Assembly (NCBI GenBank): GCA_050273025.1
Contig: CP158635.1
Span: 17,794,001 to 17,858,000, forward strand
Direction: 5' to 3'
DNA: 64,000 nt
DNA from: Cenococcum geophilum
Lineage: Eukaryota
Shown here: positions 7,266 to 57,185 of the stretch, in pieces
How the letters are laid out: each line of letters starts with the position of its first letter
Numbering within the stretch: position 1 is the stretch's first letter
Translations under genes and position numbers: made by a program
The notes under the pieces: model-generated
Seen by the model: only the letters and a program-made list of their open reading frames with translations
Told to the model about the DNA's origin: nothing
The model's database searches: none

Positions 7266-7849
7266 AGCACTAGGCTAATTAATAATTTAGAGTCTCTATA
7301 AAAGGCTTCCCCCTTAACACCTAAGTAGATAGCTCTATATTTTATATAGTTATAATATAAATATATTTAAAAGTATATTATAGCAATCTATAAGAATATA
7401 TAATAATTTAATTGTTATATATTGGAAACACAGGGCAAATCACTAATACTACTTAAGTAGATACAGTGATGGAAAAGGTTGTTATTCTAGATAGGGGAGG
7501 GTAAGGAATTTAAGGTTCCTCACCACGCTAGTGCCGCGACGGCATATGACGGTAAGTTGCCTTACATAACGGTAATATGCCGCACGTAAGGGCAAATTGT
7601 CTTATTCCCAACACTAGCAACTCTTCTTTTTATAGTTACTATTTATATATAAACAGATAGTATATAACAATATAACCGTAGGCAGACTATAGTAGAATTT
7701 AGTAGGTAATACGCCTTATTCTACTAACCCGGACTTCTACTAACTAATTACGATTTTCTATCCCCGGGATAGAAAATTGCTATTAGCTCGCTTACTACTA
7801 GCGCCTTAGCGGCCCTTACTATATCTTCTACTCCCTCTTAACCCAACCT

Positions 7850-9494
7850 TTAACTTATATATATAGAGTATTTATATTAACAAACGTCTTTAGTGCCTTA
7901 TTTAGGTTTACCTTTATTATCACATCTACTAAGTTATCTTGGCCATTAATCTATTAAATCTTAAAGAGTTTTTAACGCTTATAAGATTGCCGTAGTGCTA
8001 TAATATTAATTATAAGGCGCTTCTCCTTTATAGTACTAAGCTTAACTAAATACTTATAGAGGGAATATAAGTCGGTGTATATAATTATAGGGATAATAGG
8101 GAGTTTAAGTTAATTTATAATTATCTTTAAGGTAGTTCTAATTGCAATTACTATATTAACTCCGCCGACTATTCTATATATCTTTAACGCTAAAACGCTT
8201 CGAGTAACGCGTTTACTCTTAGTTAAGCTCTAATAAATAAGATTATTATAGATTATAAAGTTACTCTCTCTAGTAGATTTATTCGCGATAATAATCTTAT
8301 ATCCTAGCTGGGAGCTAAAATCTTTATTATTTATAAATAATCCATTAATAAATATAAAAAGCTTAGCGGTAGAAAGGTTAATAGGCACGTAGAGCAGTCC
8401 TTAATTAAGATGGCTCCTTTACCAGAAAAGACGCTTATTTAGGGCAAGGATATCCTCCTTAGTTAGTTCTTGGTGTTAAGCGGCAATAGAGAGATTAAAG
8501 GAAGCTTTGGGTTAATAGATAGAAGCTATATAAGCTCCGCGAGCGCGTTACTCTACATATCCTTACTTTAGAAAATTAATATTAATAATATTAATCTTCT
8601 TACCTTAACCTTTCTAGCGTAGGGTAATGGAATCCTTATTTAGGGAAATAATACATCTATTAAAGAGTAATAGTATTATTAAATTAAGTCTTTCCTTTAG
8701 CTTTGCTATAAGATATACCTTTACTAGCTTATCTTCTTTAAGAGCTAAGAATTAGTTATCTTCTAAAATAATTATATTATCTGTTTATATGCCAATAATT
8801 CTAAATAGAGTTCCCGTAGCTATAATAAGGAAGCAGGGATTAAATATAGAAGTAGTTATTAAAAGCTTCTCTTTATAGTGCTTACTATAAGTAGCCCACT
8901 AATAAGTTCCTGCCTCTGTAATTCTATATAGTGGCTTAAGCATAACTATAATTGTATCTTTGGGATATTGGTAGCGAATTTACTCTAAAAGGTATGCTAA
9001 TATTAAGCGCTAAAGGCGTATCTCTAATTGGGTATAGGCCTAGGTAATATCTTATAAATAAACCGCTATTTTATTTTTTATTAAGGAGGGAGCTAGCGTA
9101 ATAATAACTCGCTAACTAGCTCGTTAAATTATAGGGGATTGCGTAAAAATTACTTCCTTACTATTGTTGTTATAACCTTAAATAACTAGCCTTAACTTCT
9201 TAAATGGGGTATTAGTAGCTTTGCCTTTAATCTTATTAACCATTCTTAACCTAAATATACGAACCCTATTAAACTTAGTAGGGTTATACTTCTTAAACTT
9301 AAAGACTCCTCTTATAATAAGACCGTTAATCTCCTACTTATTAGATGCTTAAAAAGGAGCTCCTAAAGTTATAATACAGCCTTCCTTTTAAAGCTATTTT
9401 ACGAGCTTAAAGTTAGCCTTCTCTTTAGCTATTATAAAGGCTATTAATAGCTTAACTCTATTCTTAATGGCGGCAATAAGTTACTCTTTAAAAT
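7850..9494 (-). pseudogene. Copia 1 reverse transcriptase/RNase H region
   Basis: It reconstructs to KPLYGI.EAGTHW, G.QTDD.LIL, VTRSVLA.EIY and EKRL.IDI.ALR, and is colinear with 10070-11730. Confidence 0.9.
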
Positions 9495-12400
9495 TGTTAG
9501 TCACACAGGGTGACTCACTAATAACGACTACTTAAGTAGGGTTACAGTGATGTTGGTTAATAAAGCTTATTAATTAGAATAAGGGAGGGCAAGGAACTTA
9601 AGGCTCCTCACCACACTAGTACCGCGGCAACACGTAATGGCAACTTACCATTACGTGACGGCAGTTTACCGTACGTGGCGGCAACTTGCCTCATTCCCAA
9701 CACTAGCAACTCTTCTTTTATGGTTGCCATCTATATATAAATACTGCTTAACTATCATAATAAATATAAACCCTCCTCGCTTACTATTGCCATTATAGTA
9801 TAAGTCTCGCTGTCCTAAAATTTGCCTCTTAGCACACGGTGCTTTCTTACTAAGAAGTTATAGGTAGATATTATATTAGGGCCGTTAGGGCCGCTAAGGC
9901 GCTAGCTATAAGCGAGCCAATAGCAATTTTCCATCCTAGGGATAAAAAATCCTAATTAGCTAGTTTAAGTTAGGGTCTGCAGAATCTAACTAATTAGACA
10001 ACTTTAATCGCTGGTTAAAGTTCCTAGATATCTTAAGGCCTTATATAACTAAGACATTTTTAGGGACTCTCTTTTTACCTAACCTTTAACTTATATACGT
10101 AGAGTATTTATATTAACAAACGTCTCTAGTGCCTTATTTGGGTTCGCCTTTATTATCACATCTGCTAGGTTATCTTAGCCATTAATCTATTAAATCTTAA
10201 AGAGTTTTTAACGTTTATAGGATTAACGAAGTGCTATAATATTGATTATAAGGCGCTTCTCCTTTATAATACTAAGCTTAACTAAACACTTATAGAGGGA
10301 GTATAAGTTAGTACACACAATTATAGGGATAACAGGAAGTTCGAGTCGATCTATAATTATCTTTAGGGTAGTTCTAATTATAATTGCTATATCGACTCTA
10401 TTAACCATTTTATATATCTCTAACACCAGAACGCTTTAAGTAACGCGCTTACTCTTAGTTAAGCTCTAATAAATAAGGTTACCGTAAATTATAAAGTCGT
10501 TTTCTCTAGTAGATTCGTTCGCAATAATAATCTTATATCCCAATTAGGAGCTAAAATCTTTATTATTTATAAACAATCCATTAACAAATATAAAGAGCTT
10601 AGTGGTAGGAAGACTAATAGGCATATAAAGTAGTCCCCAATTAAGATAGTTTATTTACTAAAAAAAACGTTTATTTAGGGTAAAAACATCATCCTTAGTT
10701 GGTTCTTAGTATTAGGCGGCAACAAAGAAATTAAATAAAGCCTTAGGTTAATAAATAGAAGTAATATAAGCTCCACAAGCGCGTTGCTCCACGTATCTTT
10801 ACTTTAGGGAATTAATATTAATAACGTCGATCTTCTTACCTTAACCCTTTTAGCATAAAGCAATAACATCCTTGTTTAGGGAGAGGATGCATCTATTAAA
10901 AAGTAATAGTGTTATTAAATTAAGCTTTTCCTTTAGCTTTACTATAAGATTTGCCCTTACTAGCTTATCTTCTTTAAGGGCTAAAAATTGGTCGTCTCCT
11001 AAAATAATTATATTATTAGTTTATATACCAACAATTCTAAATAGGGTTTCTGTAGTTATAATAAGGAAGCATAGATTAAATATAAAAGTAGTTATTAAAA
11101 GTTTCTCTTTATAGTGCTTGCTGTAGGTAGCCTACTAATAGGTTCCTGCCTCTATAATTCTATATAATGGCTTAAGTACAATCATAATTGTATCCTCGGG
11201 ATATTAGTGGCGAATTTGCTCTAGAAGGTATGCTAATATTAAGCGCTAAAGGTACGTCTCTAATTAGGTATAGGCTTAAGTAATATCTTATAAATAAACC
11301 GCTATTCTATTCTTTATTAAGGAGGGAGCTAGCGCAATAATAACTCACTAACTAGCTCGTTAAATTATAGGAGATTGCGTAAGGATTACCTCCTTACTAT
11401 TATCGTTATAGCCTTAAATAATAAGCCTTAATTTCTTAAATAGGGCGTTAGTAGCTTTACCCTTAATCTTATTAACTATTCTTAACTTAAAGATGCGAAC
11501 TCCATTAAACTTAGTATAGTTATACTTCTCAAATTTAAAGACTCCTCTTATAATAAGACTATTAATCTTCTACTTATTAGATGCTTAAAAAGGAGCTCCT
11601 AAAGTTATAATATAACCTTCCTTTTAGAGCTGTTTTGCAAGCTTAAAGTTAGCCTTCTCCTTAGTTGTTATAAAGGCCATTAATAGCTCAATTCCGTTCT
11701 TAATAGCGGTAATAAATTGCTCTTTAAAATTAATAAGATGTTAGCGGTTTTATAATCCCTTTAGGCAACCTCTACCGCGTTATAGTTGCGGCGTATCTAC
11801 TACAATTATATTAGAATTATTGTCGCCTTCTAGAGCACGTTAATTATGGCTTTTCTTTAAGGCATTTTCTATAGCATCCTGCAAAGGCTTAGAACTATTA
11901 TCTTTATAATAAGGCTTAATAACGGTTAAATGGAATTAAGTAGGTCTATAAGGCATCTAAATAGTATAAGTCTAACCATTAATTATAATGAGTTAATATA
12001 GGCCTAACCATCCTCCCTTTTTACGCCATATATATACCTTAGACTAGAGTAGTAGGTCGAGCGTAGTTAAGGTATTTAGGCCATTTCTTATTCCTAGTGC
12101 GTTATTAACCTAGCATATAGCATAGAGACGTCGTACCTCCTTTATTGCCTTGCGAATAGCCTTAGCTTATTATATAATAGAGGGAGATAGTAGAGAATCG
12201 TTAGTTATTTAAGGGTAGGCGCTAAAGACTAGCAATATAGGTACGAGTCTATCTGGGCCAGCGGAATTATTAATGGCTTTAACAGCCATTTATAAGGTAA
12301 GTTCTTCGCTAGCGTCCTCTAGTTCTAAAGAGATAATCTTATATACGCGGCGTAATGGCGCGTAATATTATTCTACTTTTTTAACACTATTATATGCTTT

Positions 12401-15400
12401 AATAGGGACTTCCTTAACCTTAATTGCCATTACCTTTATTTATTATTAAAACTCTATAAATAAGAAGTTCTTTTCTGCGTTATAGACAATTTAATTAGGG
12501 GGTCCTAGGTAGATATTAATTTAGTATAGTTAAAGGGTATCCTATGCGTTCCTAGCTAATATATCCTTTAAGAAACATACGGCTTAGAAGGAGGTTAAGA
12601 AGTTAATAACTTAGAGTACTAGCTTACCGCTAAGATATATAACGTCGACGATAATATAGAAGTTAAAGTTATAGTTATCTTTAAGGGTAAACTTAAATCG
12701 GCTAGGGGACTTCTGGTTTATTTAGTAGTTATAGCAGTACTTTATAAGGTGCTTAATTACCTTAACCTTAACTTTATAGCCTACTCGCTAAAGAACCCTA
12801 AGCAATTAATAAATGGATAGGTAACTAAAACGACGGTATAGTTAACGTAACTCTAACTTAGTTAGGTAGCTCTAAGTAACACTCTTTTTTAGTTAATAAA
12901 GGAGTAACTAGGGGTAACCCCACTTACGCACAACGGGTACCCGATTATCTCCCTAAATAAGTATATTCTTAAGGTTATTAAGCTTAACGCCTAATTTATC
13001 TATATCTCTAATGTAAAATAGAAATCGGGTGTTTATAGGGACAATATAGAAAGTAATATACCCTAGGGGGGTTTAGACCCTAATTATACTAAGAGAGATC
13101 ACAGTACCCTTGCTAAAACGAATTATATATTGACCTACCGTTAAATAGTTAATCTGGACAGAGCTATTAAGCTACTAAAGGGCTCAAACTTAAGGTTCTC
13201 CTACTATAGATACTCCTGCGGCTTTAATATCTGGTATAATACTATAGAAGACATTCGCCAAGTATCTATTATTAAAGGAGAACGCGGAACTTTCCCTTAG
13301 CTCATTAAAGATATCTAACTTTATAATAGAATGGAGCGTAGATTAGTTATTAAGAACAGTAATAGTTTATATACTATTCACCTTACTATATTTAGTAAAG
13401 TATTAGTTAAAAGAGTAGTCCTCAATTTCTATATCTATAAGGAGCTGTTCAGCCTCATTAACCTCACCCTTAAGATCTTTTACGCCTTTATATTAAACTA
13501 GAAAGCTTTAAAAGTAAGCCACAGTAGCCTTATAATTTCCGACATTTCTTATACTTTAGCGAAACTTATTATATACCTTCTTTCGCTTATTAAGAGAATG
13601 CCTAGTTAACTAGCAATTCGGTTTCTTATAAATATAGCACTTCTTCTAGTAATTACTTTAAAATAAACCTCCATAAGGACCTCCACCTTTACCTTATAGT
13701 TATTAATTATACCCTCTACCGTATTACCTACCACGGCTACTATATATTTAATTAGTCTAATTATAATTATATTGGCCGGGCGGGTTAATTAAAGTAGGTT
13801 AGAGTTAGGCGTTAAATTATTATACTTCTTAAGAGTATAGAGCGGTGCTAACGGAAGATCTTAATTAAGTATATACTCCTTCGTAAGTATTTACAGGATT
13901 AAAGAGAGTAAGGTTGTATTCTTTAACGCCTTAGTATACGCTAATAACTTAATTATATAGGCTAAAATCCTCTTAATATAATTCAGATAAACCACACTAA
14001 ATTATCTAAAGTTAATTAAAGAGCTTTTAAAGACAATTAAGCCGAGGGACACCTAGGTTTATAGCAATAATCCTTAAAAAGGTAGTCTCTCTCCATTCTA
14101 ACATATATTACTACTTATTCTCTTCTATTTTAAAGTGGCATCTTAACATATATATTATGCGGTTAAAATTGTATCCTTTTCCTACCAAATAATTATAATA
14201 AAAGGTACTAGCTCGGCCCTTAAGCATAACGGAATAGGCGTTGTGGTATTAATTAGACTCTATTCCTACCTTCTAGTAATAGTTATAGAAGATATATAGT
14301 TTCAAATTAAGAATATTATATAATTCCCTGCTAAACTTCTTCTCCTAATCCAAGTAGAGCTTTACAAGCTCTATAAGCAATTTTAAACTACCTCCAATTT
14401 AAGATTAAGGTAGAGGAGGTAGGAGTTATATTATAGGCTATAGTAGGGATATAGGTCTAGTCGGTGGAGTCTAAAGGTTATTAAATTGCGAAGCAATAGG
14501 ATCCTATGCCTACTCTTATTAGGATATAGTATCTAACATTAAGGTTACAGGTTAAATTGGATATAAAGAAGTTAAAAGCAGAGGTAAATTTGTCTCTAGA
14601 GGTATATTACTTAGGTTCTATTATAAGTTAAGCTTCCTTATAGTATGTAGTTAGTGCTTAATCTCTTATAAAGTCCATTTATGCTCTTCTTTTGCGTTAA
14701 TAACCTGCTTCTAAATATTGTCTCTAATAGTACCCCCATCCTTAGGGATAAATACTCCATTCTTCTAAAGGAAGTTACAGAAGTTCTATATAATATCCTT
14801 ATTTACGGGGGCCTATGTTTCCTTTATCTATCTAATAAAATCCTCCTTTATACATTCCCATAGCGCGGTATCGTTATATTTACTATCCTTATAATATGCC
14901 ATACGGTATAATAAAAATCCATTTAAGTCTTGTTTATTAGCGTTTGTAAGGTCAATTATAGCTTTATTCTATATCTTTAGGTTAATATCTTCCTTATACT
15001 TCTTTAGGTAGGTTAATGCTATAGTAGATATAGAATTAACGGGGTGTCGTACGTCAAAGGTAGGTAAGATTTTCAGTTTTATAGGATCTCGTAGGTTTAC
15101 TATCAAGAGGTAGGCAATTCAAGATGTTGTTTAACGCATTTTAGACGTCGTTTAACGCGTTTCGGACGTTAACTTAGGACCCTAGGTTTAGTAACACTTC
15201 TAATCTAAAATACTCAACCAAATCTTCGTAAACGCGGTTATTCTACGTAATAGACGCAACTTAGTATCTCCTAGTACTCAGTAACACTTCTATTACTAGT
15301 TTTCCGCAAGTCTAAGGTAGTATAGTATCACCAGGATCCATTCCATATAAGCGTATATAGCACCCCTACATAAGACTATCTCTTCTATTCGAAAACCTAG

Positions 15401-15646
15401 CTGCTCTATAGTTGACTATGTATTTAACCACTAATCAGTGTTAGTTATATAGGGTGACTCACCAATAACGACTACTTAAGTAGGGTTACAGTGATATTAG
15501 TTAATAAAGCTTATTAATTGGAATAAGGGAGGGCGAGAAACTTAAGGCTCCTCGCCACGCTAGTACCGCGGCGACACGTGATGGTAACTTGCCATTACGT
15601 GACGGCAGTTTGCCGTACGTGGCGGCAACTTGCCTCATTCCCGACA
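9495..15646 (-). mobile_element. Copia 2, a related family nested in Copia 1 between IN and RT, same orientation
   Basis: It has 208-bp TG...CA LTRs at 9495-9702 and 15439-15646 and a TSD AAAAT (9490-9494, 15647-15651). The rejoined host flanks match the uninterrupted homologous site near 11720. Confidence 0.96.
10070..14930 (-). pseudogene. Copia 2 gag-pol polyprotein
   Basis: The RNase H fragment is ORF 10223-10426 (LEIY...CTNLYSLYKCLVKL...KEKRLIINIIALR). An integrase Zn-finger reads L(H)RRF(GH).S near 12820, and RT reads KPLY near 11170. Confidence 0.9.
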
Positions 15647-15651
15647 AAAAT

Positions 15652-18600
15652 TAATAAGGTATTAGTGGTTTTGTAATCCTTTTAGGCGACCTCTACTGTG
15701 TTATAGTTATGGCGTATCTACTATAGTTATATTAGGGTTATAGTCGCCTTCTAAGGCACGTTAATCGTGGTTCTCCTTTAGGGCATCTCTTAGGGTATCT
15801 TCTAGGGTATCTTATAAAGGCTTAAAACTATTATCTTTATAGTAAGGCTTAATAACAGTTAAACGGAATTAAGTAGGTCTATAGGGCATCTAAAGAGTAT
15901 AAGTCTAACTATTAATTATAATAAGTTTATATAGGCCTAACTATTCTCCCTTTTTACGCCATACGCGTACCTTAAATTAGAGTGGCAGATTAAGCATAGT
16001 TAAGGTATTTAGGCCATTTCTTATTCCTAGTGCGTTATTAACCTAGTATATAGCGTAGAGACGTTATACCTCCTTCGTTGCCTTATAAATTGCCTTAGCT
16101 CGTTATATAATAGAGGGAGATAGTAAAGAATTATTAGTTATTTAAGGGTAGGCGCTAAAGACTAGTAATATAGGTACAAGCCTATCTAGGCCAGCGGTAT
16201 TATTAATAGCCTTAACAGCTATCTATAGGATAAGCTCTTTGCTAGCGCCCTTTAGTTTTAAAGAAATAATCTTATATATGCGGCGTAATGGCGTATAGTA
16301 TTATTCTACCTTTCTAATACTATTATATGCCTTAACGGGGACTTCCTTAACCTTAATTGTTATTACCTTTGCCTATTATTAAAACTCTATAAATAAGAAG
16401 TTCTTTCCTATATTATAAACAATTTAATTAGGGGGTCCTAGGTAGATATTAATCTAGTATAATTAAAGAGTATCCTATGCGTTCCTAGCTAATATATCTT
16501 TTAAAAAGTATACGGCTTAGAAGGAGGTTAAGAAGTTAATAACTTAAAGTACTAGCTTGCCGCTAAGATATATAATATCTATAATAATACAGAAGTTAAA
16601 GTTATAGTTGTCTTTAAGGGTAAACTTAAATTAGCTAGGGGACTTCTGGTTTATTTAGTAGTAATAGTAGTACTTTATAAGATGTTTAATCGCCTTAACC
16701 TTAACTTTATAACCTACTTATTAAAGAACCCTAAGCAGTTAGTAAACGGATAGGTAGCTAAAATAATAATATAGTTAACGTAGCTCTAACTTAATTAAGT
16801 AACTTTAAGTAATACTCCTTTCTAGCTATTAAAGAAGCAACTAAGGGTAACCCCACTTACGTATAACGGGCACCTAATTATCTCCCTAAATAAGCATATT
16901 CTTAAGGTTGTTAAGCTTAACGCCTAATTTATTTATATCTTAGATATAGAATAGGAATGGGGTATTTGCGGGAATAATATGGAAAGTAATATATCCTAAC
17001 GGGGTTTGGACCTTAATTATACTAAGAAAAATTATAGTACCCTTACCAAAGCGAATTATATATTGGCCTACTATTAATTAGTTAATCTAAATAGAACTAT
17101 TAAGCTGCTAAAGAGCTTGGACTTAAGGTTCTCCTACTATAGATACTCCTACGGCTCTAGTATCTGGCATAATACTATAAAAGACGTTTGCTAAGTATCT
17201 ATTGTTAAAGGAGAACGCGGAACTTTCCTTTAGCTTATTAAAGATATCTAACCTTATAATAGAATAGAGCGTAAATTAGTTATTAAGGACAGCAACAGTT
17301 TATATGCTATTTACCTTACTATACTTGGTAAAGTATTAGTTGGGAAAGTAGTCCTCAATTTCTATATCTATAAGGAGCTATTTAGCCTCGTCAATCTTAC
17401 CCTTAAGATTTTCTTCGCCTTTATATTAAACCAGGAAGCTTTAGAAGTAGGCTATAGTAACTTCTTAGTTTCTAACATTTTATGCGCTCTAGCGAAACTT
17501 ATTATATGCCTCCTTTTGTCTATTAAGGGGGTGTCTAGTTAACTAGTAATTTAGCTTTTTATAAATATAGCATTTCTTCTACTAATTGTTATAAAATAAA
17601 CCTCCATAAGGACCTCCACAATTACTTTATAATTAATATTAATTATACCCTTTACTATATCCCCTGCCACGACTACTATATATTTAATTAATCTAGTTAT
17701 AATCGTGTTAGTTAGCCGGGTTAATTAAAGTAGGTTAGAGTTAGGCGTTAAATTACTATACTTCTTAAGAGCGTAGGGCGGTGCTAATAGAGGATCTTAA
17801 TTAAGTATATACTCCTTTATAAGTACTTATAGGGTTAAAGAGAGTAAGGTTATATTCTTTAACACCTTAATATACGTTAATAACTTAATCGCGTAGGCTA
17901 AAGTCCTTTTAATATAATTTGGATAAACTATATTAAATTATCTAGAGTTAATTAAAGAGCTTTTAAAGATAATTAAGTTAAGAGGCACCTAGGTTTATAG
18001 CAATAATTCTTAGGAAGGTAGTCTCTCTTTACTCCAATATATACTACTGCTTATTCTCCTCTATTTTAAAGTGGCATCTTATTTCATATATTATTCGGTT
18101 AAAATTGTATCCTTTTTCTGCCAAACGATTATAATAAAAGGTACTAGCTCGGCCCTTAAGTATAACTAAATAAGTAATATAGTATTAATTAGGTTCTAGT
18201 TTAACCTTCTAGCAACAGTTATAGAAAATGCGTAACTTTAAATTAAGGATATTATACAGTTCTCTGCTAAACTTCTTCTCCTATTCTAAATAGAGCTTTA
18301 TAAGCTCTATAAGCATTTTTAAGATACCTCCAATTAGTATTTAGCTATATTGCATTATAGGCTATAATAGTAACGTAGATCTAGTTGGCGGAGTTTAAAG
18401 GTTATTAGACCGCGAAGCAAGGGGATCTTACGCTTATTAGGGGTTGTTAATTAAGGCTATAGGTTAAGCTGGTTAATATAGGGGAGTTAAAGATAAAGGT
18501 AGAGGCGATAGATATAGAATGTTAGAACTTATGCTTAGAGTAATAGAGTTAAAACGTGTCTCTAGTGGTATATTGCTTAGGTTCCATCGTAATTTAAGCT

Positions 18601-18890
18601 TCTTTATAGTGCGTAGTTGGTGCTTAATCTCTTATAGAGTCTATTTATGCTCTTCCTTTATATTAATAACGTATTCCTAAATATTATCCCTAATACTACC
18701 CCTATCTATAGGGACAAATACTCTATACTCCTAAAGGAAGTTACGGAAGTCCTATATAATATCTTTATTTATAGGAACCTATATTTCCTTTATCCATCTA
18801 ATAAAGTCCTCCTTTATATAATACTATAGCGCGGTATTATTATATTCGCTATCTTTATAGTGTTTTATATAGTGTACTAAGAATCTATTT
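15652..18890 (-). pseudogene. Copia 1 gag-protease-integrase region
   Basis: It is colinear with and highly similar to Copia 2 at 11730-14930. Confidence 0.88.
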
Positions 18891-19830
18891 AGGTCCTATT
18901 ACTTAGCGGTTACAAAGTTAGTTACGGCTCTGTCCCATATCTTTAGGTTAATATCTTTCTCATACTTCTTCGGATAGGTTAACGCTATAGTAGGTAGAAT
19001 TAATAAGGTGTTATACATTAAAGGTAGGCAGGATTTTTGGTTTTATAGGATCTTATAGGTTTACTGTCTAAAGGTGGGCAATTTAAGATATTGTTTGACG
19101 CGTTTCGGACGTTAACTTAGGACCTTAGGTTTAGTAATACTTTTAACCTAAAGTACTTAACCAAATCTTTATAAATATAATTGTTCTATATAATAGACGC
19201 AACTTAGTATCTCCTAGTACTTAGTAACACTTCTGTTACTAGTTTTCCGTAAGTTTAAGGTAGTATAGTATTACCGGGATCCATTCCATATAAGCGCATA
19301 TAGCACCCCTATACGAGACTATCTCTTCTATTAATAACCCAGCTACTCTGTAGTTAACTATGTATTTAACCACTAATTAGTATTAGAAATATAGGGCAAA
19401 TTACTAATACTACTCAAGTAGATATAGTAATGGAAAAGGTTGTTATTCTAAATAGGGGAGGGTAAGGAATTTAAGGTTCCTTACCACGCTAGTGCCGCGA
19501 CGGCACGTGACGGCAAGTTGCCTTACGTGACGGCAATATACCGCACGTAAGGGCAAATTGCCTTATTCCCGACATTATATAATATAATTATAATTTATAT
19601 AGTTATAATTTATACGGTTTTTGCAATTTATATAGTTTTTATAGTTTATATAATTTATATAGTTTGCGCGCTATTTATTTTAGTTAAGCGTTTTACTACA
19701 ATTTACTAGTAGATACTGCAATTTTGTTACAAAACGCGCGGTTTGCGCGAATCGCTAAAGACTATATATAACTGCGCAAATTGTATAATTTGCAGCAATC
19801 TACAATAACGCGCCTAAAAAAATCCTAATA

Positions 19831-20070: not shown

Positions 20071-20247
20071 AGGGGGGGGGGGGGGTAATATTATAGCACT
20101 AGTAGAAAATGGCAGAACTTAGTTAGCAGAACTTGGTAGAACTTAGTTAGTAAAACTTAGTAGAACTTTACACTAGCAAGTTGCCACAGATTACCGTATA
20201 TTGCGGTTACGTGACGTGAAGATCTTATAAAACATTGAGCGGTACTA

Positions 20248-37115: not shown

Positions 37116-37809
37116 TGTAGTAGTGTGATTTGGCCCTAGGATTTAATATTTAGATTAGGCATAGCTTTAGGAGAGCCTAGGCCTTCTATAAGTTATATAG
37201 ATCGGTTTAAAGCCTTTAGAGTCTTTAATAACTTAGGTAACACCAATAGATATACAATTTTCCTATAATACACTCTTTTCTTTCTCTTCTTACTGCTTAA
37301 TTCTAACTAATAGTGACCGACTAATAGACTAACCGACCGACTGATAGATAGCACTAAGACTTTCCTATCTTAGAGAGGTCGTACCCTTCTATATATTTTA
37401 TGGCATTCCATATAGAGACGACGGTAAGCTCTTTAGATTAAAAGTCTAGTGCTCTATATACAGGAGACGTATAGGAACAATCTGGAACTATAATAAAACG
37501 ACCGAGATAAAAAAGTATAGATATATTAGCGACCTATACGTAGCTACCGCCACAAAGAATAAACCGACAACACTTGCTAAGCTCTCTATACGGGAATAGT
37601 AGTCGGCAAGTAGCGATAAGAAGGCGAGTACGGAGCATAGTAAGACGAAGGATAAAAGGAAGGACTATGGTACACCAGGAACAGTAAAGAAAAGTCTTTT
37701 ATATTTTATTTACTATATTTGCAACGGTCTATACTATTATTCTCGCATTTATTAGAGCTACCTTTAAATTTATAACAATAGCGACAGTACCAGCAAAGGG
37801 ATTGTTAGG

Positions 37810-45497: not shown

Positions 45498-45665
45498 ATT
45501 CTGCTATATTCTGCTAAATTCTGCTACCTTATCACATTCTGCCAAATTCTGCCACCTTATCGCATTCTGCCAAATTCTGCCACATTATCGCATTCTGCCA
45601 AATTCTACTACATTATTGCATTCTGCCAAGTTCTGCCATATTATTGTATTCTGCCATATTCTACC
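45498..45665. repeat. 28-bp tandem array (TTCTGCCAAATTCTGCCACCTTATCGCA), about 6 copies
   Basis: Directly visible in the Ngaro 3' untranslated region. Confidence 0.88.
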
Positions 45666-45799
45666 AACCCTAAGTTATAAGCCAACTAATTAGAATTTTC
45701 CATGCCTGGCATAGAAAATCGCTATTAGCTCGCTTACCACTAGCGCCTTAGCGGCCCTCTTAACATCTTAACCTACTACGTAGTAATCCTTACGCTAAA

Positions 45800-46760
45800 A
45801 GCGGTACACTACGCTAAAAGTAAGAGTTAAGGCGATAGAGGTTAGTGGTCTTAGTCCTAATATATAGGCAAAAGGCTTCTAATAACCACTAACCTAGCTG
45901 CTAAATTTACTAATATAAACACCCTAAATCTTTAGTAAACTAGGCAGCGCCCCAGCGGAAGGAGTGGTTTAAGTAACTACTTAAGTTAATCCCAGCAGCT
46001 ATTAAATAGAAGGAAAGGATCTTGCAAACCCCTAAAGAGGTAAAGGGTTTACTATTAAGACTAAATAAGGGAGAGTTAAGGGGTTAAGGGTCCCTATTAA
46101 ACAGCTTTATTATAGTAGCGACTAGGCATAATAGGCCGCCTACCGCTGTAATAGTGACGTTAACGCCCTAGTATTACTTATTGGCTTTACTCCATTTAAG
46201 GCGGAATGTTATCCTACTAGGCGTAAAGGTGATATTATATTAAGTGGCCTTTTTCGCTAGGAAGGTTGTTTAGTTCTTAAGCTCCGCTATAGTGTATATA
46301 ATCTCGCCTATCTATAGAAATCCAGCAAATACAAGGGTAAATGCGATATTAGTATTAACATCCAGTAGTAATAAGCCGTGTATTACTACCTAGGCTAGAA
46401 TATCCCTAGTAATCGGTGTACTATAGGATCCTTAAATACTATAATTAAGATGCTGTAATCCACGTGGCGTAAGCAAATTGCGGAAATATAGGCTTATAAG
46501 GTTTCGGCCTTAAGCCTACCTATCTATAGCTAGGAGGTACTAAACGCATAGCAGGCAATCTATTCGCCTAGTTTACGCGGCTTAGCTGGGTAGGGGGAGA
46601 CTTCTTTAAGTACGCAGTATAACTCCTAGCTATTAACTGCTAAGGAATAGTTCCTATAGGTTGCTGGCGTAAGGCCGTTCCAGAGAAGGAGCGTATAAAG
46701 GTTAAATAGCGCGTTAATATTATCTTTAAAGTTTATAGGCAGTTATAAGTAGTCTATTAG
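45800..46760 (-). pseudogene. Tyrosine recombinase of the Ngaro element
   Basis: Motifs are AFTLVFAGFL(R)IGE, LK.SK, HSFR.GAA (~45950-45975) and G(R)W.(S)EAF.LY. Confidence 0.88.
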
Positions 46761-46849
46761 GTTTACGGCACCTATTAAAAACTTATTAGCTTTAGTAGTA
46801 ATAAATTAAGGGCCTAGTATAGGTAGAACTAATAGATAGCCGCGGCCTG

Positions 46850-48400
46850 GAATTAAGATAGTGTATTAGCTAAGCTATTTAAATTACCTAGGATCCACTT
46901 CGCGGATATTATAATATCGTAAGCTATAGCAGCTAGCATAATCTTACGGAGCGATTCGTTTGCTACGCTACGGATAATAGTCTTCTTAATGCCCTAGTAA
47001 ACCACTATACTATTAGTGTAAATAAATAGCGCGCTATGCTACTAGTTGGTAGACTATAGATTAAATGCGTAAGCAATAGTATATATCTCTTTTAGATTAA
47101 TATGGTCTACTTATTAACTGGGCTTAGGTAATATACTAAACGCCTAAAATTAAGGGAGGTTGGCTGTGTACCACTGCTAGTTATCCTTATATTTAAGTTC
47201 CTTAAAAAAGTAAAAGCCACCAAACCTAAACCGGGTAAAGGCGTTAGTAAAGAGATAAATATAGGTACGCTTAACGTCGTTAAAAAACAATACCCCATTA
47301 CTTATAGTAAGTAGGTTAAGCTAGACACATAAGTCACTTCGCAACTTAGTGCTAAATTACCTAGGTTTATACTTATTTACTAGAGTCTCCGGCTAAGTAG
47401 TAATAAAGATTTAAAGGGATCTAAAGTAAGATTAACTAAGTTTAATTACGTGGGCGCACTATATAAGGTAGCCCGTAAGCTACTAGACTTAAAGGAACAA
47501 TAATAAGCCGTATTAGAGTGCGGTAGTGACTTTCTTAATAATATATAATTGTTTCTGTAGTAATAATCACGTTTATATTTATATAGTGTTAATAGTATAT
47601 CCTAGAACTTTAATAATAGTTCCTACTATATCTTTAGAGCCATTTTAAGGGATACTTAGGGAGTTAGTAACAGAGATATAAGTTTAGGTAATAGCTGCTA
47701 AGTTATTCAGGTTGGCAAGGATAAAGATAAAATCATCTAGGTAGTATTCCACCTTATAAGGCAGTTATAAATAGAGTATCTAGTATAGGCCTTCCGCGAA
47801 GAGGTTAAATATAAGCGGCGCAGTTTAAAGACTAAAGGATAGGTAGTATTCCTAGTAGGTAATACCTTCCTAGGAGAAGCCTATTAATGTTCTTACCCTA
47901 TAAGATAGGGGGACTATACAGAACGTATCTTTAATATCTCTTTTAAGCAGTAGATATCCACAACCTGCAGAAATAATATGGGCTTAAATAGCGGTAACTA
48001 TAGTGTATACTAGTGCTCCATATTCTTTTAGGATTGCGTTATTAACTAAAGATGCTAGTGGAAAGGAGAGATTGTAAATTCGGTGGTATCCTCTATCCGA
48101 TTTTAGTACTAGGCTAAGAGGTAAGACTATAATAGGCCCTGTCGCGATTCTAATATATCCTTTTTTAAGGTCTAATATTATCTTCTTAGAGATAAGGTCA
48201 ATATTATCCTAAGAGGAGTTATAGTTCCTATAAGATCTTAGGGTAGGGATAGACTTAGCTCCTATCTCGCAGCTATAGGTTAGGATACCTACTAAGGTAG
48301 CTAGTAAATTGCCTAGGTAGTTAGATAGAAGGAAGTGCCACGCTAAGATCCTTAGGGGTAATAGAGAGTAGTGGAGAGCCTTCGCCTCTATAAAGGTAGA
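46850..48400 (-). pseudogene. Ngaro reverse transcriptase + RNase H
   Basis: Motifs are VEYYLDDFIF (~47725-47755), L.F(G)L.TAP.IFNLFAEGL, HINLKE and KWI(P)G..NSLA(D).LS. Confidence 0.9.
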
Positions 48401-48419
48401 GAATAATAGTAACATATTA

Positions 48420-49260
48420 GGCCTAGGTCCTAGGCATATAATTAAAGTTAGTGTTATTATTAGGCTAGACCCTACTTTATAAGGTTGGCCTTACTATTCC
48501 TAGTATACAACCTAGGTCTCTTTAAGGCGGCAAAGCTAATAGCACTAGATATTGTAAGGTATAGCGCTATATACTAGGCTAGCATTTACTAATTAGTGGG
48601 CTTTAGTTAGCCATTAGTTATTATAAAGGTATAATAGTTAAGTGCTAAGTCGAGTATATAACCTACCTAGATATACTAGGTTAATAAGGTATAAATTATA
48701 TTTATCTAAAGAAGTATGCTAGCGATAAGGTCCAGCGGGCATATATAAAGGGTGCTAGTAATAACCACGTAGTTAGTAAAACCTTTAAACTAGACACCTT
48801 TATCTATAAATAGCTTCCTATTTACCTTTGCCTTTCTTATAACTAGAGTACCATTCTTAATCCATATCTTATTAGCGATTTTAATTTAAGTAGTATAGAC
48901 TTAAAGACGGGCGAGGTTTACTGGATTAAAGGTACCCTTAAAAATATCCAGGTAATCCCTTTTTATAACGCCAAAAAGGCGGAGTTTAAGCAACTTTATA
49001 CTAGGAGGGAGAGGCTCACTAAGAATATTAGCTATAGTAGCTATTATAGTAACCTATAAGGCCAAAGCGGCTAAGCCTAACTATAATTAAGCCATTTAAG
49101 CTAGGTGGTATTTATACTGGCAAGTCTCCTCCACTAGGCGGGCTTTGCTCTCTTCCTTATACTTCTAAATCTCCCTTTTATTTTAGGCTTGTTCCCTTTA
49201 CTCTTTAGCAATTTCGCGCTCTTTTACAGCAGCGGCGCGTATATTAGCCTTAGACGGCAT
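48420..49260 (-). pseudogene. Ngaro gag-like ORF1
   Basis: The ATG at 49260 gives MPSKANIRAAA, and the ORF lies upstream of RT. Confidence 0.55.
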
Positions 49261-51888
49261 TATAGAACTAGTAGAGGAGGGTATAGCGGTTATAGACGAT
49301 GGTGTAGTTAAGGTAGGTCGTCTAGGTGGGTTTGCTTATTAGGATTATATACGCGTATAAATCTCCTAGTTAGTTATAAGCGGTAATAGCGTTATAAAAT
49401 AATTCTTAAACGAATAGATAATGAATGTATAATAAATATTAATAAGTTTAGCGATATTAAAAGCGAATTAGCCACGTAGTAACTGCGTTTAATATTCGCG
49501 AATATTGCAGGAGGTCTTAGCATTATGCGTTGCTAAGGTAGATGCTGCCAAGCAATATATAGACGCTAGTATATTTATACTCTAAATCTTTAGTCCCTTA
49601 GATTTTTCGATCCTAAGCTTGCTTCTAACTTAAGCTTAGCTTCAGCCTTAGTCTAACTAGGCTTACTTAGTATTCTTATCTTGTCTTAAGAGTCTTAAAT
49701 CTCACTTATCTCGTCTTAAGAATCTTATACCTTTAGGAAACTTCATCCTAAGCTTATTCGTATATTACTAAACTAAGCCGTTACTCTGCCCTATCGGTTA
49801 TCGTCCATTATAGGTCCTTAAGCTTACCTTATCTCGTCTTAAGAATCTTAGTTGTCTTACATCTCGTCTTAAAAATCTTAAACCTTTAACCTTTTACCTT
49901 TATTGAGTGCCGAAGTAGCTCACTATCCTACTTCTTCTACATCTTATAAAGCGATAGACATTATATCTAGTAGGGTTTTAATCCCTACTAATGTTCCCTA
50001 TTCTATAGTGGAATTATCCTCTTCCTCTAGTATAATATCTTTAATAGCTGCGCGTTCCTAGTAAACCGCTTTTATTACCTTATTATTACGAAATACTTCG
50101 CCTTTATTAAATTTATCGTCCTTAATATCTAATCTACGAGCTAGTTTGTTAGTTCCTTAATATTTTAATAAACTTAGCTCCTATGGCCAATAGCTTACGC
50201 TATATTTAGCGTCCTTATAAATTTAGTATACGTTATTATAACAAAACGCAAAACTTCTAATTAAACATTCTTTTATTCCTTGCAGTATATTATCATCCCT
50301 CTATATATATATATTGTCTACTAGTCTCATGCCTTTTACTATATAGTAACTCTGCCCACTTCTACAGTCTCTAACATAATAACCCTATTTTCCGCAATTT
50401 ATGCAAGCTCCCTCTTTAAACCATTTTTCTTATTATGGAGTCCGCCTAAACGTCTTCTGCTGCTAAGATCCCTAGTTTAGCCTCTGCTCCTTAAACCTTT
50501 AATCACTTAATTCTTATCCCCTAGGTTTCTATAGTTGTTTACTCTATTTCTTATAGGCTTCTTTAGTACCGCTTAGGTTTATTAGCTCTACGCCATACTA
50601 TAATTTCTAACTTAGCTTTAGTTATTACGTACTCTACGCCTTATATAACTATAGAACTTTATCCTAACCTCTCTTAGCCTATTCTCTTTAGTAGATCCAA
50701 TTATTAATCTTAATCGCTTAATCTATTAGTTCCCTTAGGGTATCCGTATCTTCTATTAGAATAATTACGTCCTAGACTTTAGCCTTAAGTCCCTATTTAT
50801 ACTGTGCTATAAGCGCCCTATTATTCCACTCTATTTATATTACTAATGTCTAGAACTATATTATATACTTAATCGCTAAGGTTCATTACGTAATATCTTA
50901 GAGTTTTCTTTCCGCTATAGTTACTGCCTCTAGGTCTCTAAATATTTGTATAAGTCACTTTACAAATCCATTTTAGCTTAAGAACATAAACTGTACCTCT
51001 TGGTTCGTTATCGTCATTCTATTTACCTGGATTTCCGTAAGGTAAGGCTTGAACTATTTAAGTGCTCTTCCTGTTAAGAACAATCCTATATACACTATTT
51101 AATCTATAAATATTGCCAGCTTTACTCCTTCTTATGCAACTTTAAAATACATTTACGTAAGAAATTCTTTAAGCTTTAACTTCTCTCCTGAAAATCTTTT
51201 AATTAATAGTAACTTAACCTTTGCTACGCCTATCCCGTTAATCCTATTTTCCAACGTTACATTATTTTTTATTAACTGGTTAACTATCTCTTATAGTTGT
51301 CTAACCATTATAGGTTGCTATAAGTTAGTATCTGCTATACTAGTGTCGTTACCTAACCTTAAAGTAGTTGCCGCCGTTAATAGCTTTATGGTAGCTGCTT
51401 TTAGTGGCATGTTATTTAACTTATTGTGTTTAATACTGTAACTATAGTAGTAATTATATAACGGAACCTTGTAGTAGGAACTACAATGGGCTTCGTTAAT
51501 AGGCTAGGTGTGTAAAAAAATATAAAGATAATAGTTAACAACGTAATAATAACTGGTGGAGTAGTTGCCTAATAGATTAACTCTAATTGTATTCTAAGAA
51601 TTACTATAAGGAAGAAACTATCTAGGTAAGGACTAAGGGTCCTTAAATACACAACTGTACTCCTATAAAATTCTTCTTATACATAATATACGTCTTATAT
51701 ATAAGGTACGTGAGTTCCTCTTGTTCCTCTCGTTTAATACGTAGCATATTATATAACCTTAGCTACTATTCCTCGTCATATAGTTCTATCGGCTCCATCC
51801 TAGACCGTGCCTAAATTAACTAACTAGCTTCTTCTAACTCCTCTCCAAGTAGTCATAACATTGTACTTAAAGCGTCCATAATAATAAT

Positions 51889-54800
51889 TAAATCTAGTTC
51901 CTTAAAGACTAGCTAAGGTAGAACGCGAATATTAATCCTAATGCGCTAGCGATAGGTGTCTAACTAAAGGCAGCTTCTATAAAGCTTGTAAAGGGTAATA
52001 ACGCTAAAAGTAAAGAGGAACTTAGTAAGTCCTGGGAAGATGTATACTAAGTAAAGTTAATATATATTAATTTAGTAGGGGCCGTAACCTAGTTATAGCC
52101 TACGCTATAGGTATATAATCTTAGGAGACCATAAGGGGAAGTAAGGGTAATAAAATAGCCTCTAGAACTATCTGGTCCGCGACTAGCAATGGTTTAAAAT
52201 ATATAACCAGGAGGACATATCCAAATTGCACTACGGCCCTAGTAGTAGGCTCCTTTACTACCGTTAAGCGGTAATAGGGGTGATAAAATAAATTATACCG
52301 AATAGCTAAGATAGATAAAGTAAATAGCGGATATAATAACGATAGTTAAAGTATTACGACTAAAGCTAGTTAGGATAATGGATATACTAAAAGGAAACGT
52401 CCTAAGCCCAACCGTGATGGCGGATAAGATCTTGTTAAAACTATTAAAGTTACTGTTAGTAACTGCCTTATGTATATACCTAAAGTTATAAGGTTATTCT
52501 TTAAGCCTCTTTCGCTACCCCTTATAAAGCCTTACTAATAGAAGTAGGAGGACGTTAAGGCATTTATATTGTTAGTATACCTAACGTTCCATGCTAATTA
52601 AGCCGGTATAACGACTGCTAAAGTGGACCAGATTAAATAAGAAGTAGGATTTATCTAGTTTCGAAGGCGGTGCCTAAAGGTAGAAGCGCAGATAGGAGAC
52701 AGAAGAGCTAAATGATTAATTAATTTTAGAGCTAAGCTTAATCTTATTAAGGAAAGCGTAGCCCTATAACACAGCCTACTAATATTAAGTCTGCCTTTAT
52801 AGTTATAAGGCGTGTGTCTAACGTTTATAAATAAAACTTAGTCTAAGTTCATTAGGCTAGTATATACGGTCCCTATAGTAATAGGTGACGTCTTAATATC
52901 TACGACGTTTATTGCTATAGGGGAAATGTTATATAAGGTAATACTTAGTAAGCTATAGTTAGTAAGGGCTAGACTAGTAACGAAACGAACCGCAATAGGT
53001 TAGGTATCTTATATTATTTAATTAAAAGATAGTAGAGTCAAAATAAGGTTTTTAATATCCTATAAGGATGCGATATTCTTTAAACTAAATAAAGGTATTA
53101 GTATAGAAAATAGTTTAGGAAACGTATAGCCGGTGCGACTATTAAGATTATATCTGGGGTTACTTATAACCCAGCGTATTAGAATAAAAAGGATATTAAG
53201 AATAAAAAGGAGGGAAATAAGGTACGGCTCTAATATAGACGTATACCGTTTTAGATATCTACTAGATAGAGCTATTAGTAGGGAGAGGAGCATAATATTA
53301 GATAAAGAGAGCTCGATAGTAAAATATTAAAGGAAGTCCTAAAGAAACACTTAAGGAAGAATTAGAAGCTAGTATTTAAAGTAAAAGCTAAGTCCCTTAT
53401 ATATTAAATATTGAAGATAATAAATCTATTTATAATATAAATAAAAAGCTGCCGGAGTAAGGCCTAACTAAATACTATAAATGTAGTAACTACGTATAAA
53501 TAGAAGGTAGACAAAGTCTACCTAGTTAATTTATTAGCACTAAATGGAACAGTTATAGGAGGCATAGTAGAATAGCGAGAGGTAGCCTTATGTTAACAGA
53601 AGGCGTCTATCTAAGGATTACCTCTTAGGCCGTATAATTATTTTCTTAAGCCGCAATATACTAAGCTGGCCTACGGTATATAACTAAAGCTAGAATAATT
53701 AGAGCGTATAATTATAGGAGATATTTAGCCAAGAGAACGAGAGATCCTTAAGGCCATATTATTTAACTGGGAAGAGGCTCTAGTATAGGAGTTCTCTAAG
53801 ATAGGTTACGTTAGTAAAGACGTAACTCTACTACTAAAGATTAAAACTGTGCTGTATAAAGTATAGTAAGTGCCGAACTTTTTAGTACCTAGGGCCCTAT
53901 AAGGAGAAGTAATAAATATATTATAAGAATAACTAGCTTAAGGGACTCTAGAATATTACGAAAGCCTATATAGAAATCTATAGTTTTTTATAAGTAAGAA
54001 GGAATGTAATAAGTACTAACTAATTAACGCGGCGATAAATATTAACTAAGTAACTATTAGGGACGCAAATCTGCCGCTATATACTAATGAATTTTCTAAG
54101 GAGTTTGCGGGGTATAAGGTTATATCTCTAGTGGACTTCTTTTCTAGCTATAACTAATTAGAGCTAGATATAAAAAGCCAGAACCTAATAGCTTTTATAA
54201 CACCTTTAGGACTTCTATAATAAATAATAGTACCTATAAAAAGCATGAATTCCGTAGCCTAGTTTGTGCGGACAATTACTAAAATCTTAGAACGACATAT
54301 CTTATACTATACCCTGCCATTTCTAGATAATATTATAGTAAAAGGCCTATAGATAGTATATAATGGGGAGGAAAGCCTTCTAGGTATACGTAGATATATT
54401 CTAGAATATATTATATAGCTAAACGGAGTACTTATAGATTTAGAACAAGCTAGGTATACAATCTTAGGCGTAAAGTCTCATTTCTATAAAGATAAGATTA
54501 TAGTGGTTGGCTACCGCTATAATAGAAAAGGACGATATCTAGAAGAGTTAAAGGTCGTAAAGATTATTTACTAGAAAGACTGTGAAGATATTACATCGGC
54601 CTAAGCGTTCTTAGGAGTTATCGTATATTACTAAATATAAGTAAAAGACTTTGTAATTAAGGCAGAGCTAATCTTCCAACTACTATAAGTAAACGTTCCG
54701 TTTATATAGGGTATAGAGTAAATAGCCGCTATAAAGACTCTAAAGTATGCAGTTACTACTACACCTATATTAGTTTAGCTGGATTATAGTAAAGGGACTA

Positions 54801-56740
54801 AGCTAATTATTCTCGCTATTAATAGATATAAGAATGGATGGGGGTGTAGCCTTATATAACTAAACGTGCAAGGTTATTATTACCTATATTAATATAAAAG
54901 CGGTATTTAGTCTTAGGCGGAGCAGAAATATAACTTAGAAAAGCTTAAATATTAGGTATTATTATATACGTTAAAGAAGTGTCGCGTATACCTATACGGC
55001 GTTTACTTTATAGTGGAGATGGATATAAATACCCTAGTTATATAACTAAATTATACCGCCACTAATTTACCTAGAGCCTTAATAATAAGATAGCTAGCAT
55101 AGATCTAGCTATAGGACTTTAATATTAGATATATGCTAAAAAAGAAGAATAGCCTAGCTAACAGACTTTCGCGATAACTACTAGATGGTAAACGACCTAA
55201 TAAGCCAACTAAGGATATTAAAGAGTTTATTAACTGTAAGCTAAGTGCTTTAGAATATATAGCTAGCCTAGTTAAAATGGAGGTAAATCTACTACTAGAA
55301 GACTTGTATTTAGGGGAGTTTTAGAAGATTATAAAATGGCTAGTAACCTTATAATGTCTAAAAGAAATAAATACCAAAGAATTTAAAAAGTTTAAATAAT
55401 ATACGCTGAAATTCCTAGTGTGTAATTAACAGCTCTTTTACTAATAGTTAAAAAATGTACTAATATAAAGGGTAGTTAATAATAAGGACGCTTAGCAGGA
55501 GATTATTAAAAGCCTTTATAATTAAAGTAGATATTATAAATAAGAGGGAACGTATTAAAGGATTTTAAATTAATATTAGTGGCTAGGGCTATAAGATTAG
55601 ATATTATAGTATATTAAATTATATTTATAATGCTAGGAATAATAGCTAGGATAGGAAGAAGAAGTAATATACCCTATATAGGAGTCCACCTTATAGTAAT
55701 AAGTAGCAGTAAATATTACGTTTATATCTCTAAGCCGTCTTAAATTCTAGTACCTAGCTATTACTTAAGAATATATATCTAGATAGGTAAAAGCTCGGGC
55801 CCTTTAAAATAAGGATATAAAAAGTATAGCGAAGTTCCTCTATAAAGATATTATTTACTAATAGGGAGCATTTGGATAGCTCTTTATAGATAGTAGAGGA
55901 GAGAATACTAACGTTACTGCTACACTTGTAGAGCTCTATAATATTAAGAGGGTTATAGCTTCCGCTTACCACACTTAGGTATAAGGCTTTATAGAGTAAG
56001 GCCACAAACCTATAATAGACGCTTTGGCGAAGATAGATAGCTTATAGCTAAATAATCTTTATATTATTTTATAGGCAGATAAGATAACTATTAAGCGGCC
56101 TACGGAAATAACACCAGTAAGAGTTATATGCGGATATAAGCATATCCTTCCTATTAAACTCTATATACCTACTTAGCAGATACTGCCTTAGTAAATAGTC
56201 TGGACTACTATAGAGCTACTAGCACTTTATATAAAGCAGTTTAACCAAAAAGATATAGATATAAAAGAGGCTATTATATATATAAGACAACTAAGGGTAG
56301 TAAATAAGGAGTACTTTAATAATACCTACCATATTTACTAGGACGGATTTAAGGTTAGAGATATAGTTATACTTTATAATATACAGCTTAAGTAAAACTA
56401 TTCTAGCAGTTATAAGTTAGATCTAAAATAGCTAGGCCCGTTCCGCGTATATAAGAGTCACCCTTATAAAGGATAGTACTTAATTAAGGATCTTAATAGT
56501 ATACCGTTCCGTAATTAAACTCCAGAAAATAGATTAAAGAGGTTCTATTAATAATAGATATCTAAAGTCCACTAGGAAGACCGGCTCGACCAATTAGGCG
56601 AAACTATACTATAAGAAATAATAGCAGAGCTAGAGTCTAAGAAAGACATACAAAATCCACCAGTATCGCAACGCCGCGTAGTTTAAGAAGTGCGTATTCT
56701 AGAAAGATCGTTTAATAGAACTAAGTACGAAACATTTAAC
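51889..56740 (+). pseudogene. Gypsy C gag end, protease, RT, RNase H and integrase
   Basis: Motifs are LI(DSG)A(E)LNLI (~52716), DFFS(G)Y(DQ), PFLD(D)I.VK, Y(DSG)KL(EC), NSLA(DG)LSR and integrase .ERGHKP (~55995). Confidence 0.9.
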
Positions 56741-57185
56741 TAGGGGACAGTTAAGTTCTACGGTGGGGGAGGGGATATAAATAACAGCCGTGCAATCCTT
56801 TTATTTGCCGTATTTCCTAAAGCTCTTTCTATTACGCGTTCTTATTTACTTTTTAGTTAGGAATCTAATGCGTGTTAACAGTAAGGTAAGGGTAAAAGAA
56901 TGTTTACGAATAACTATCTAGTATTATTTACTGCAAAGATATTAGTTCTGCTTACCGCCTTTACTAAGCTAATAGCGATTTTCTATACCGGGTATAGAAA
57001 ATTATAATTAGTCCATTTAATAATTAGAGCTAGTAGAACTCCATACCGCCACTAAATTCGGTAGACTATTTAGATTAGGAAACCCTATTTAGAACTTTAC
57101 CTTTTTGCCTTTAATAAACCTTAAAGATAGTTATAATTAGCTAAAGTATAAACTAAGCAGAATTAAGAATAATAATATACTTATT

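Follow-up and report, generated by a model that had tools for sequence, protein, structure and literature searches.

The 64,000-nucleotide window analysed here (Cenococcum geophilum, GenBank assembly GCA_050273025.1, contig CP158635.1, positions 17,794,001 to 17,858,000; coordinates given below without a prefix are window positions) is filled by a nest of fungal retroelements damaged by repeat-induced point mutation (RIP), with TpA/ApT ratios of 1.45–1.83 throughout. Our subject is a non-coding palindromic module of about 75 bases that four of these elements have in common. An earlier examination of the letters alone (the sequence-only reading) had identified the four as two Copias, a Ngaro and a Gypsy (Gypsy C), and these identities are borne out by long terminal repeats (LTRs), the GalEa Conserved Hairpin Site (CHS), split repeats and domain matches. 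Copia 1 (7420–19577, minus strand; LTRs 7420–7616 and 19381–19577; pol end 7831) and Copia 2, nested in it (9495–15646, minus strand; LTRs 9495–9702 and 15439–15646; pol end 10067), are both of the GalEa type and have the CHS 9-mer after the 5′ LTR; a Pfam search of their pol ends, which are RIP-damaged, gave no match. The Ngaro (44886–49579, minus strand) has split direct repeats (A1 49460–49579, B1 45308–45464, A2 45196–45315, B2 44886–45042) and a reverse transcriptase/RNase H/recombinase coding part at 48351–45793 on the minus strand (RVT_1, E = 6e-4), and a homolog of its recombinase gives a weak Phage_integrase match (E = 0.018). Gypsy C (37118–62629, plus strand), which contains nested insertions, is delimited by an inferred LTR pair (37118–37387 and 62360–62629, 90% alike); its pol (about 53000–56700, with an approximate end at about 56,600–56,700) has the domain order reverse transcriptase, RNase H (E = 5e-7) and integrase motifs, the last read by eye. 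Past pol lies a RIP-broken accessory open reading frame (ORF; 57186–62299, plus strand), which is split by an insertion into the parts 57186–58985 and 61248–62299.

Alignment and a RIP-tolerant 25-base pattern for the central dyad (9-base arms and a 7-base spacer) find exactly four module copies, in the places where the sequence-only reading had put them; no fifth dyad occurs in the window even with 2–3 mismatches, and none of 100 shuffles gives any match. The first copy (7742–7815, plus strand; dyad 7753–7777) lies in the 3′ untranslated region (UTR) of Copia 1, with left and right CCAAT boxes at 7744–7748 and 7782–7786, both RIP-changed, and with a tail of type A that extends to 7815 and faces back to pol. 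The second (9888–9961, minus strand; dyad 9926–9950), in the 3′ UTR of Copia 2, has its tail facing the 3′ LTR, and the opposite orientation of the module in the two Copias, claimed earlier, is thereby confirmed; the boxes of this copy had been called literal, which is true of the right one (9917–9921) and not of the other. The third (45684–45757, plus strand; dyad 45695–45719) stands between the recombinase end and the B1 repeat of the Ngaro, its tail facing back to the ORF, beside a tandem array of TTCTGCCA-type motifs (45498–45666, plus strand). The fourth (56930–57013, minus strand; dyad 56978–57002), in Gypsy C, had been taken for a bare core; instead it carries a second tail type (tail B) common to other Gypsy families. 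Its left CCAAT box (57007–57011) faces the accessory ORF, the start of which at 57186 is 175 bases from 57011, just as had been estimated. The distances from ORF end to dyad, 54 bases in Copia 1, 117 in Copia 2 and about 74 in the Ngaro, agree with the earlier description of the copies as lying just downstream of the last pol or recombinase ORF. The interpretation of the remaining boxes as RIP-changed CCAAT was also right because literal-box copies exist in the genome, where a pattern requiring one CCAAT box to be literal yields 394 strand-matches, in many of which the two boxes are intact.

The view of the module as a portable cis-module common to unrelated retroelements is supported on the scale of the genome. 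In the assembly of the fungus (G000; 178 Mb in 7 contigs; contigs and individual loci are hereinafter given C and L numbers), the RIP-tolerant dyad pattern matches 3,231 sites as against 2 for the reversed control, and the module has a fixed place in the Copia, Ngaro and Gypsy C families. Thus, in loci picked by a neighbouring ORF and blind to the module (the Copia and Ngaro sets each including the window's own copy), it is present at fixed offsets in 23/30 Copia, 27/30 Ngaro and 30/30 Gypsy C loci, preceding the accessory ORF in all of the last. The ten loci lacking it comprise two cut by other insertions, two Ngaros with the dyad deleted and six sisters of Copia 2 (L242, L256, L259, L262, L266 and L268), in which the place of the module is taken by TTCTGCCA-type motifs, arrayed in tandem and lying on the opposite strand. 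For classification of the carriers we used tblastn with fetched Gypsy proteins and stop-read-through window frames, because a Pfam scan of 145 stop-free fragments had classified few loci. In every classifiable context, among own-genome and metagenome loci alike, the module lies about 50–500 bases from the 3′ end of pol or the recombinase (L114, L116, L119, L120, L121, L124, L127, L134 and L143 were left unclassified). Among the carriers, GalEa accounts for five lineages, of which three have proteins about 35% identical to that of Copia 2; the others are one classic Copia, five Gypsy lineages, Ngaro and one non-autonomous LTR family. The module is oriented about half each way among them. At least 124 loci come from a metagenome, with flanks carried by 123 of those listed; since a host gene on one module-bearing contig there is 96% identical to that of G000, these loci represent a close relative and not a wide spread. 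Eleven matches from a scan of prokaryotes were left out of account. As to neighbouring host genes, an intact haem peroxidase gene (linoleate diol synthase-like; L078:5549–8695) is followed, about 530 bases downstream, by a lightly mutated module-bearing Copia (L078:4996), and other copies lie near genes for a major facilitator superfamily transporter (L121), a mitochondrial carrier (L142) and a P450 (L107).

Comparison of 38 flank contexts representing 203 instances showed both boxes to stand exactly 4 bases from the dyad, the common sequence beginning at two purines before the left CCAAT. Judged by the NF-Y-type consensus given as RRCCAATSR (PMC11802806), the left box fits, with a purine at both of these places in 37/38 contexts and then C/T and A, and the right box fits fully in 15/38, with A at the S place in 22; by this test both boxes are predicted NF-Y/HapBCE sites. 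Invariance of the core is not an artefact of the search pattern, because, when sites were picked by nothing but the tail, 30 of the first 31 proved on comparison by eye to have the exact dyad at the exact distance; exact arms with spacers of 0–6 bases occur at only 3 sites. The left-right layout is kept in 201/205 instances (the others are two right-right cases, one truncated row and one mis-oriented row), and left and right flanks occur in mixed combinations. Two composite sites known to include a CCAAT box, the CBC-HapX bipartite site (CSAAT-N12-RWT) and the endoplasmic reticulum stress response element (CCAAT-N9-CCACG), were considered and rejected: the inspected literal-box matches have no RWT at the corresponding place and read CCATG or CCATC after CCAAT-N9. 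Copia 2 further contains a second, different dyad of 23 bases (10000–10022) with its own RIP-changed CCAAT box (the whole at 9990–10022). Both Copia 2 and several Gypsy families have it; in 59/193 instances it is found no more than 200 bases from the module, and at L158 it has a different centre that is still self-complementary. Another Gypsy's LTR (L104, L158) combines a CCAAT box and the second tail block with an adjacent TATA-like stretch and has no dyad; together with the second dyad, it suggests a kit of interchangeable promoter parts.

The source of the module can be traced to an LTR. The complete Gypsy at L077, recognized by 229-base LTRs that are 97% alike, a 5-base target duplication and a polypurine tract, carries a module in each LTR, 38 bases from its start; in this Gypsy clade the module lies inside U3. 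Related LTR variants have a common layout of variable TTCTGCCA-type arrays followed by the module and then a pyrimidine tract, which is that of a U3 promoter; the motifs filling the donor U3 are the same as those of the array beside the Ngaro copy. Of 24 queries, four, which are 3′ UTR copies in other lineages, can be aligned with almost all of the 3′ half of the donor LTR (0/200 shuffles each). These come from two Copia 2 subfamilies, another GalEa family and another Gypsy, and as each is nearest to a different LTR variant, separate captures are suggested. In one GalEa family (L206, L169), the captured piece begins at the first bases of the LTR, and in one Copia 2 subfamily the module is present twice, at a distance of 102 bases. 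The window copies of Copia 1 (7697–7741, plus strand; z = 5.0), Copia 2 (z = 4.8) and Ngaro (z = 8.1) retain about 40 bases of left U3 flank, a score that 0/300 shuffles reach in each case. The captured LTR of L102/L215 may be flanked by a target duplication, which at 4 bases was set aside as too short to count. The graded series from whole LTR to core would account for the jump from one superfamily to another and also for the two orientations, since nested insertion has no preferred direction, and the presence of both spacer types within single families indicates continued exchange. The sequence comparisons point to a single, well-supported source, the U3 of a Gypsy LTR clade, pieces of whose LTRs would have been captured and then trimmed.

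The explanation that we favor, and consider probable though far from secure, is that the module is the centre of a Gypsy U3 that other retroelements have repeatedly captured into their 3′ non-coding ends and that likely serves as a two-way promoter or enhancer; of its two halves, capture is well supported and the regulatory function is likely. The central part of U3 in one Gypsy LTR clade of this fungus would have entered 3′ ends several times and in either direction, by nested insertion reduced to a solo LTR or by a jump of the reverse transcriptase, and the captured LTR piece would have been trimmed to its core under selection. The host CCAAT complex (NF-Y/HapBCE) would then bind both outer boxes and a putative dimeric factor the inner dyad. 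Its likely output would be the accessory ORF in Gypsy C and, in the Copias and Ngaro, a site of open chromatin at the 3′ end, accompanied by RNA in the sense or antisense direction. The observed basis for this consists of the U3 position, the graded LTR remnants, the fixed place 3′ of pol, the occurrence in both orientations and the fixed spacing. Function is further suggested by purine-only flanks that break hairpin pairing, by the position 175 bp before the accessory ORF and by weak divergent RNA. Among the activities put forward in the sequence-only reading, an orientation-independent enhancer or promoter is the one that would fit best. The TTCTGCCA-type U3 motif array standing in place of the module in 6/30 Copia loci is also as would be expected of interchangeable regulatory blocks.

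The RNA evidence comes from four runs mapped on the lightly mutated element L080, one a stranded run of raw reads and three older runs in the form of contigs. In the stranded run (strand taken from the usual library type, in agreement with three reads running from the LTR into the element), the means of the listed bins give a plus-strand depth of about 9.4 past the module vs 0.4 before it; on the minus strand, the tail side has a depth of about 1.4 vs 0.4 on the other, these being contrasts drawn within RNA runs. The pattern is one of divergent transcription, if weak. The older runs likewise have higher depth past the module and are uninformative on strand, start and level. A TATA-like stretch (L080:5510–5525) lies about 500 bases past the module within the higher-RNA-depth region of this non-autonomous element.

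Several observations weigh against a captured promoter or enhancer. On L080, the stranded run has no pile-up of starts, plus-strand reads cover the module itself (depth 15.8), and 494/536 reads are only 90–95% alike and 503 fit only partly; the reads come mostly from other copies. On the side of capture, the left flank of the Gypsy C copy is marginal (8/300 shuffles reach its score), the 3′ side beyond the tail has no significant LTR match in any of the four window copies, and tail B was not found inside an LTR. On the side of function, the inner dyad was matched to no named factor, and the Copia 2 sister group (6/30) multiplied without the module. The accessory ORF has stops in all of the 150 scored matches to its start except a few short fragments, and its 26%-identical paralog has no module nearby (0/10). 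Finally, the two bases at the spacer edge switch together, only 6/3,231 sites being asymmetric, and a hairpin of RNA or DNA would demand the same.

The accessory ORF had been called dioxygenase-like, and a weak PhyH-like region is indeed present in a 950-residue homolog (P0001), with a match that remains below threshold (E = 0.007). The label stays weak because an atlas search with the first 260 residues of the protein gave no usable match. About 90 near-full matches to the first 175 residues occur in G000, all with stops; most copies being dead, selection is visible only through history. We rejected the idea that an ORF of this type must be accompanied by the module, as none of the ten distant paralogs has it. 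These paralogs (L330–L339, e.g., G000 C1:495394) have no Gypsy pol nearby and are in tandem in L336, L337 and L338.

The alternative that deserves the most thought, unlikely as we consider it, takes the working part to be a structure in the RNA of the element, either a hairpin or a self-complementary stretch, acting in genome pairing for packaging, in export or as a place where reverse transcriptase pauses. Perfect palindromes work regardless of strand, and common ones would help RNAs of different families to meet and recombine; the palindromic dimerisation signals described in Ty1 (PMC6844567) offer a precedent. The module always lies within the 3′ end of the transcript and is seen within RNA reads, and its copies fold well in 6/6 cases (−24.6 to −33.7 kcal/mol; z = −1.9 to −4.8). 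The second dyad, too, changes symmetrically (L158). In the covariation analysis, only the spacer-edge pair covaries beyond RIP-type changes (14/34 sequences), 11/22 pairs never vary, three stem positions are unpaired in most sequences, and double-change pairs are no commoner than in shuffles (441/500). The sole double change beyond RIP-type transitions is thus confined to one pair and possibly to a single event, for which template switching offers an alternative, quasi-palindromes being reported to be perfected in this way without selection (PMC3820800); the symmetric switch would fit a hairpin, a symmetric dimer site or template-switch repair alike. Moreover, arm sequence and spacer length are fixed, and the flanks obey the NF-Y rule where pairing breaks: purine variation before the left CCAAT breaks a would-be base pair in 19/34 sequences. 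The non-palindromic tail is kept in both orientations, and Rfam gave 0 matches at E up to 1 in 8 loci. The RNA hairpin proposed in the sequence-only reading is thereby weakened, its good folding notwithstanding.

We are somewhat more doubtful of a neutral origin, by which nested Gypsy insertions would have left behind those copies that lie outside the Gypsy LTR, and these would have been carried along as their hosts multiplied. Nested insertion is everywhere in the window, LTR remnants of all lengths exist, the module-less Copia group multiplied too, and a comparison inside families does not clearly show the module to have changed less than the sequence around it. Against such passive carriage, at least 11 lineages outside the donor clade keep one and the same part of one LTR at an identical location, the boxes and dyad remain while the flanks erode to different lengths, and the dyad persists even though it is prone to deletion (lost in 2/30 Ngaro loci). 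A bolder extension of the captured-promoter explanation, in which the cassette would have become the common property of retroelements, is a speculative long shot: it would give pioneer-factor access in silenced chromatin, its palindrome would pair RNAs across superfamilies and so promote its own spread, and an amplified extra HapB/NF-YA gene may have been its dedicated partner.

The HapB genes merit description in their own right. G000 has an intact host HapB gene (C7:17462104) and six RIP-broken HapB/NF-YA paralogs (C7:4783895, C5:10238576, C1:7592674, C4:19595002, C6:11953957 and C6:7815363; L227–L238). The paralogs sit in a large repeat, two copies of which are colinear over the whole 10 kb fetched, and which may be a large cargo-carrying element. 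As part of the module elements they were rejected, since theirs is a separate colinear repeat without the module, and the modules nearby (at 3/6 loci) belong to other insertions.

The remaining alternatives fare worse. The layout of the dyad, with 9-base arms and a 7-base spacer, resembles the core sites of recombinases, and it might be the target of a tyrosine recombinase, such as that of Ngaro, that swaps flanks between elements. The mixed flank combinations and the right-type boxes on both sides in two copies of one family (L133, L191) would suit this; however, a symmetric spacer would often yield left-left and right-right products, the left-right layout kept in 201/205 instances argues against it, and the transferred unit reaches far past the dyad, to the LTR ends, so that we consider it very improbable. 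A shade less credible still is an insulator or shield protecting element DNA from RIP or heterochromatin. NF-Y is described as binding LTRs in closed chromatin in human cells (PMC3730095), but in three families RIP target sites are mutated at 0.61–0.69 in the module vs 0.57–0.80 nearby and 0.69–0.74 further off; a shield against RIP is not supported, the module being mutated as heavily as its surroundings. That the module is an ordinary miniature inverted-repeat transposable element scattered at random, despite its high copy number and palindromic core, or a chance likeness, can be practically dismissed in view of the shuffles, the fixed offsets in module-blind loci, the family-dependent ends with no terminal inverted repeats or target duplications at the edges, the one-sided tail beside the central palindrome and its being part of an LTR.

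It is already known from published accounts that distant retroelements have 3′ ORFs in common (PMC5408684) and that LTRs are mixed within clans (PMC6894440). Our literature search, which left subscription papers and supplements outside its scope, turned up no account of the module, nor of a single non-coding promoter cassette distributed over Gypsy, Copia and Ngaro. The RM boxes of the plant Copia genus Sirevirus, symmetric hairpin-capable motifs proposed to be regulatory (PMC2829016; PMC4728375), are like the module in being found both within the LTR, where they precede the promoter, and once more immediately 5′ of an additional ORF that comes after pol, which is where Gypsy C has its copy; they differ in being many short copies in one genus, whereas the module is one fixed paired-CCAAT cassette that crosses Gypsy, Copia and Ngaro in both orientations. 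In human LTRs, NF-Y sites with partner motifs at fixed distances are common, as in LTR12 and MLT1, and their CCAAT boxes can be bound in closed chromatin; there NF-Y binding was shown, whereas here it is predicted, and the account given describes them in their own LTRs, not as captured into the 3′ UTRs of other elements (PMC3730095). In bdelloid rotifers, very different retroelements have 3′ parts in common, for which template switching was proposed, but these are coding ORFs (ORF3), unlike the non-coding module with its still visible donor LTR ends (PMC5408684). Recombination of Ty1 and of the ONSEN clan during reverse transcription also mixes LTR regulatory areas between elements, by this account mostly within families and rarely across them (PMC6894440), while the module crosses superfamilies in either orientation. 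The GalEa CHS, described as specific to GalEa, where it stands after the 5′ LTR and replaces the primer binding site, is similarly a conserved palindromic non-coding motif common to families of one species (PMC5445492). The module has a different sequence at the other end of the element and was rejected as a form of it, as it lies 3′ of pol, whereas the 9-base CHS follows the 5′ LTR and is separately present in the window's Copias. If repeated capture by Gypsy, Copia and Ngaro is true, it would be a clear case of one promoter taken up across all three, with all stages from whole LTR to core preserved, and one regulatory input would control thousands of copies of unrelated families in a transposon-swollen fungal genome. 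The module would offer a defined 75-base target for asking what turns on fungal retroelements despite RIP, and it bears also on the expression of the ORF downstream of pol.

Two further features of the window deserve mention. Window 32204–32862 matches the module-leading flank of L081:4270–4924 and ends about 70 bases before the module position, where other Gypsy sequence stands; the stretch is closed by an inverted repeat of its own (about 32782–32846), and a fifth module copy may have been lost at its end. Tandem repeats of 12 bases, which read as low-complexity ORFs, occur at 31700–32400 and 59440–59900; they adjoin the 3′ accessory regions of LTR elements and are present in L081 too.

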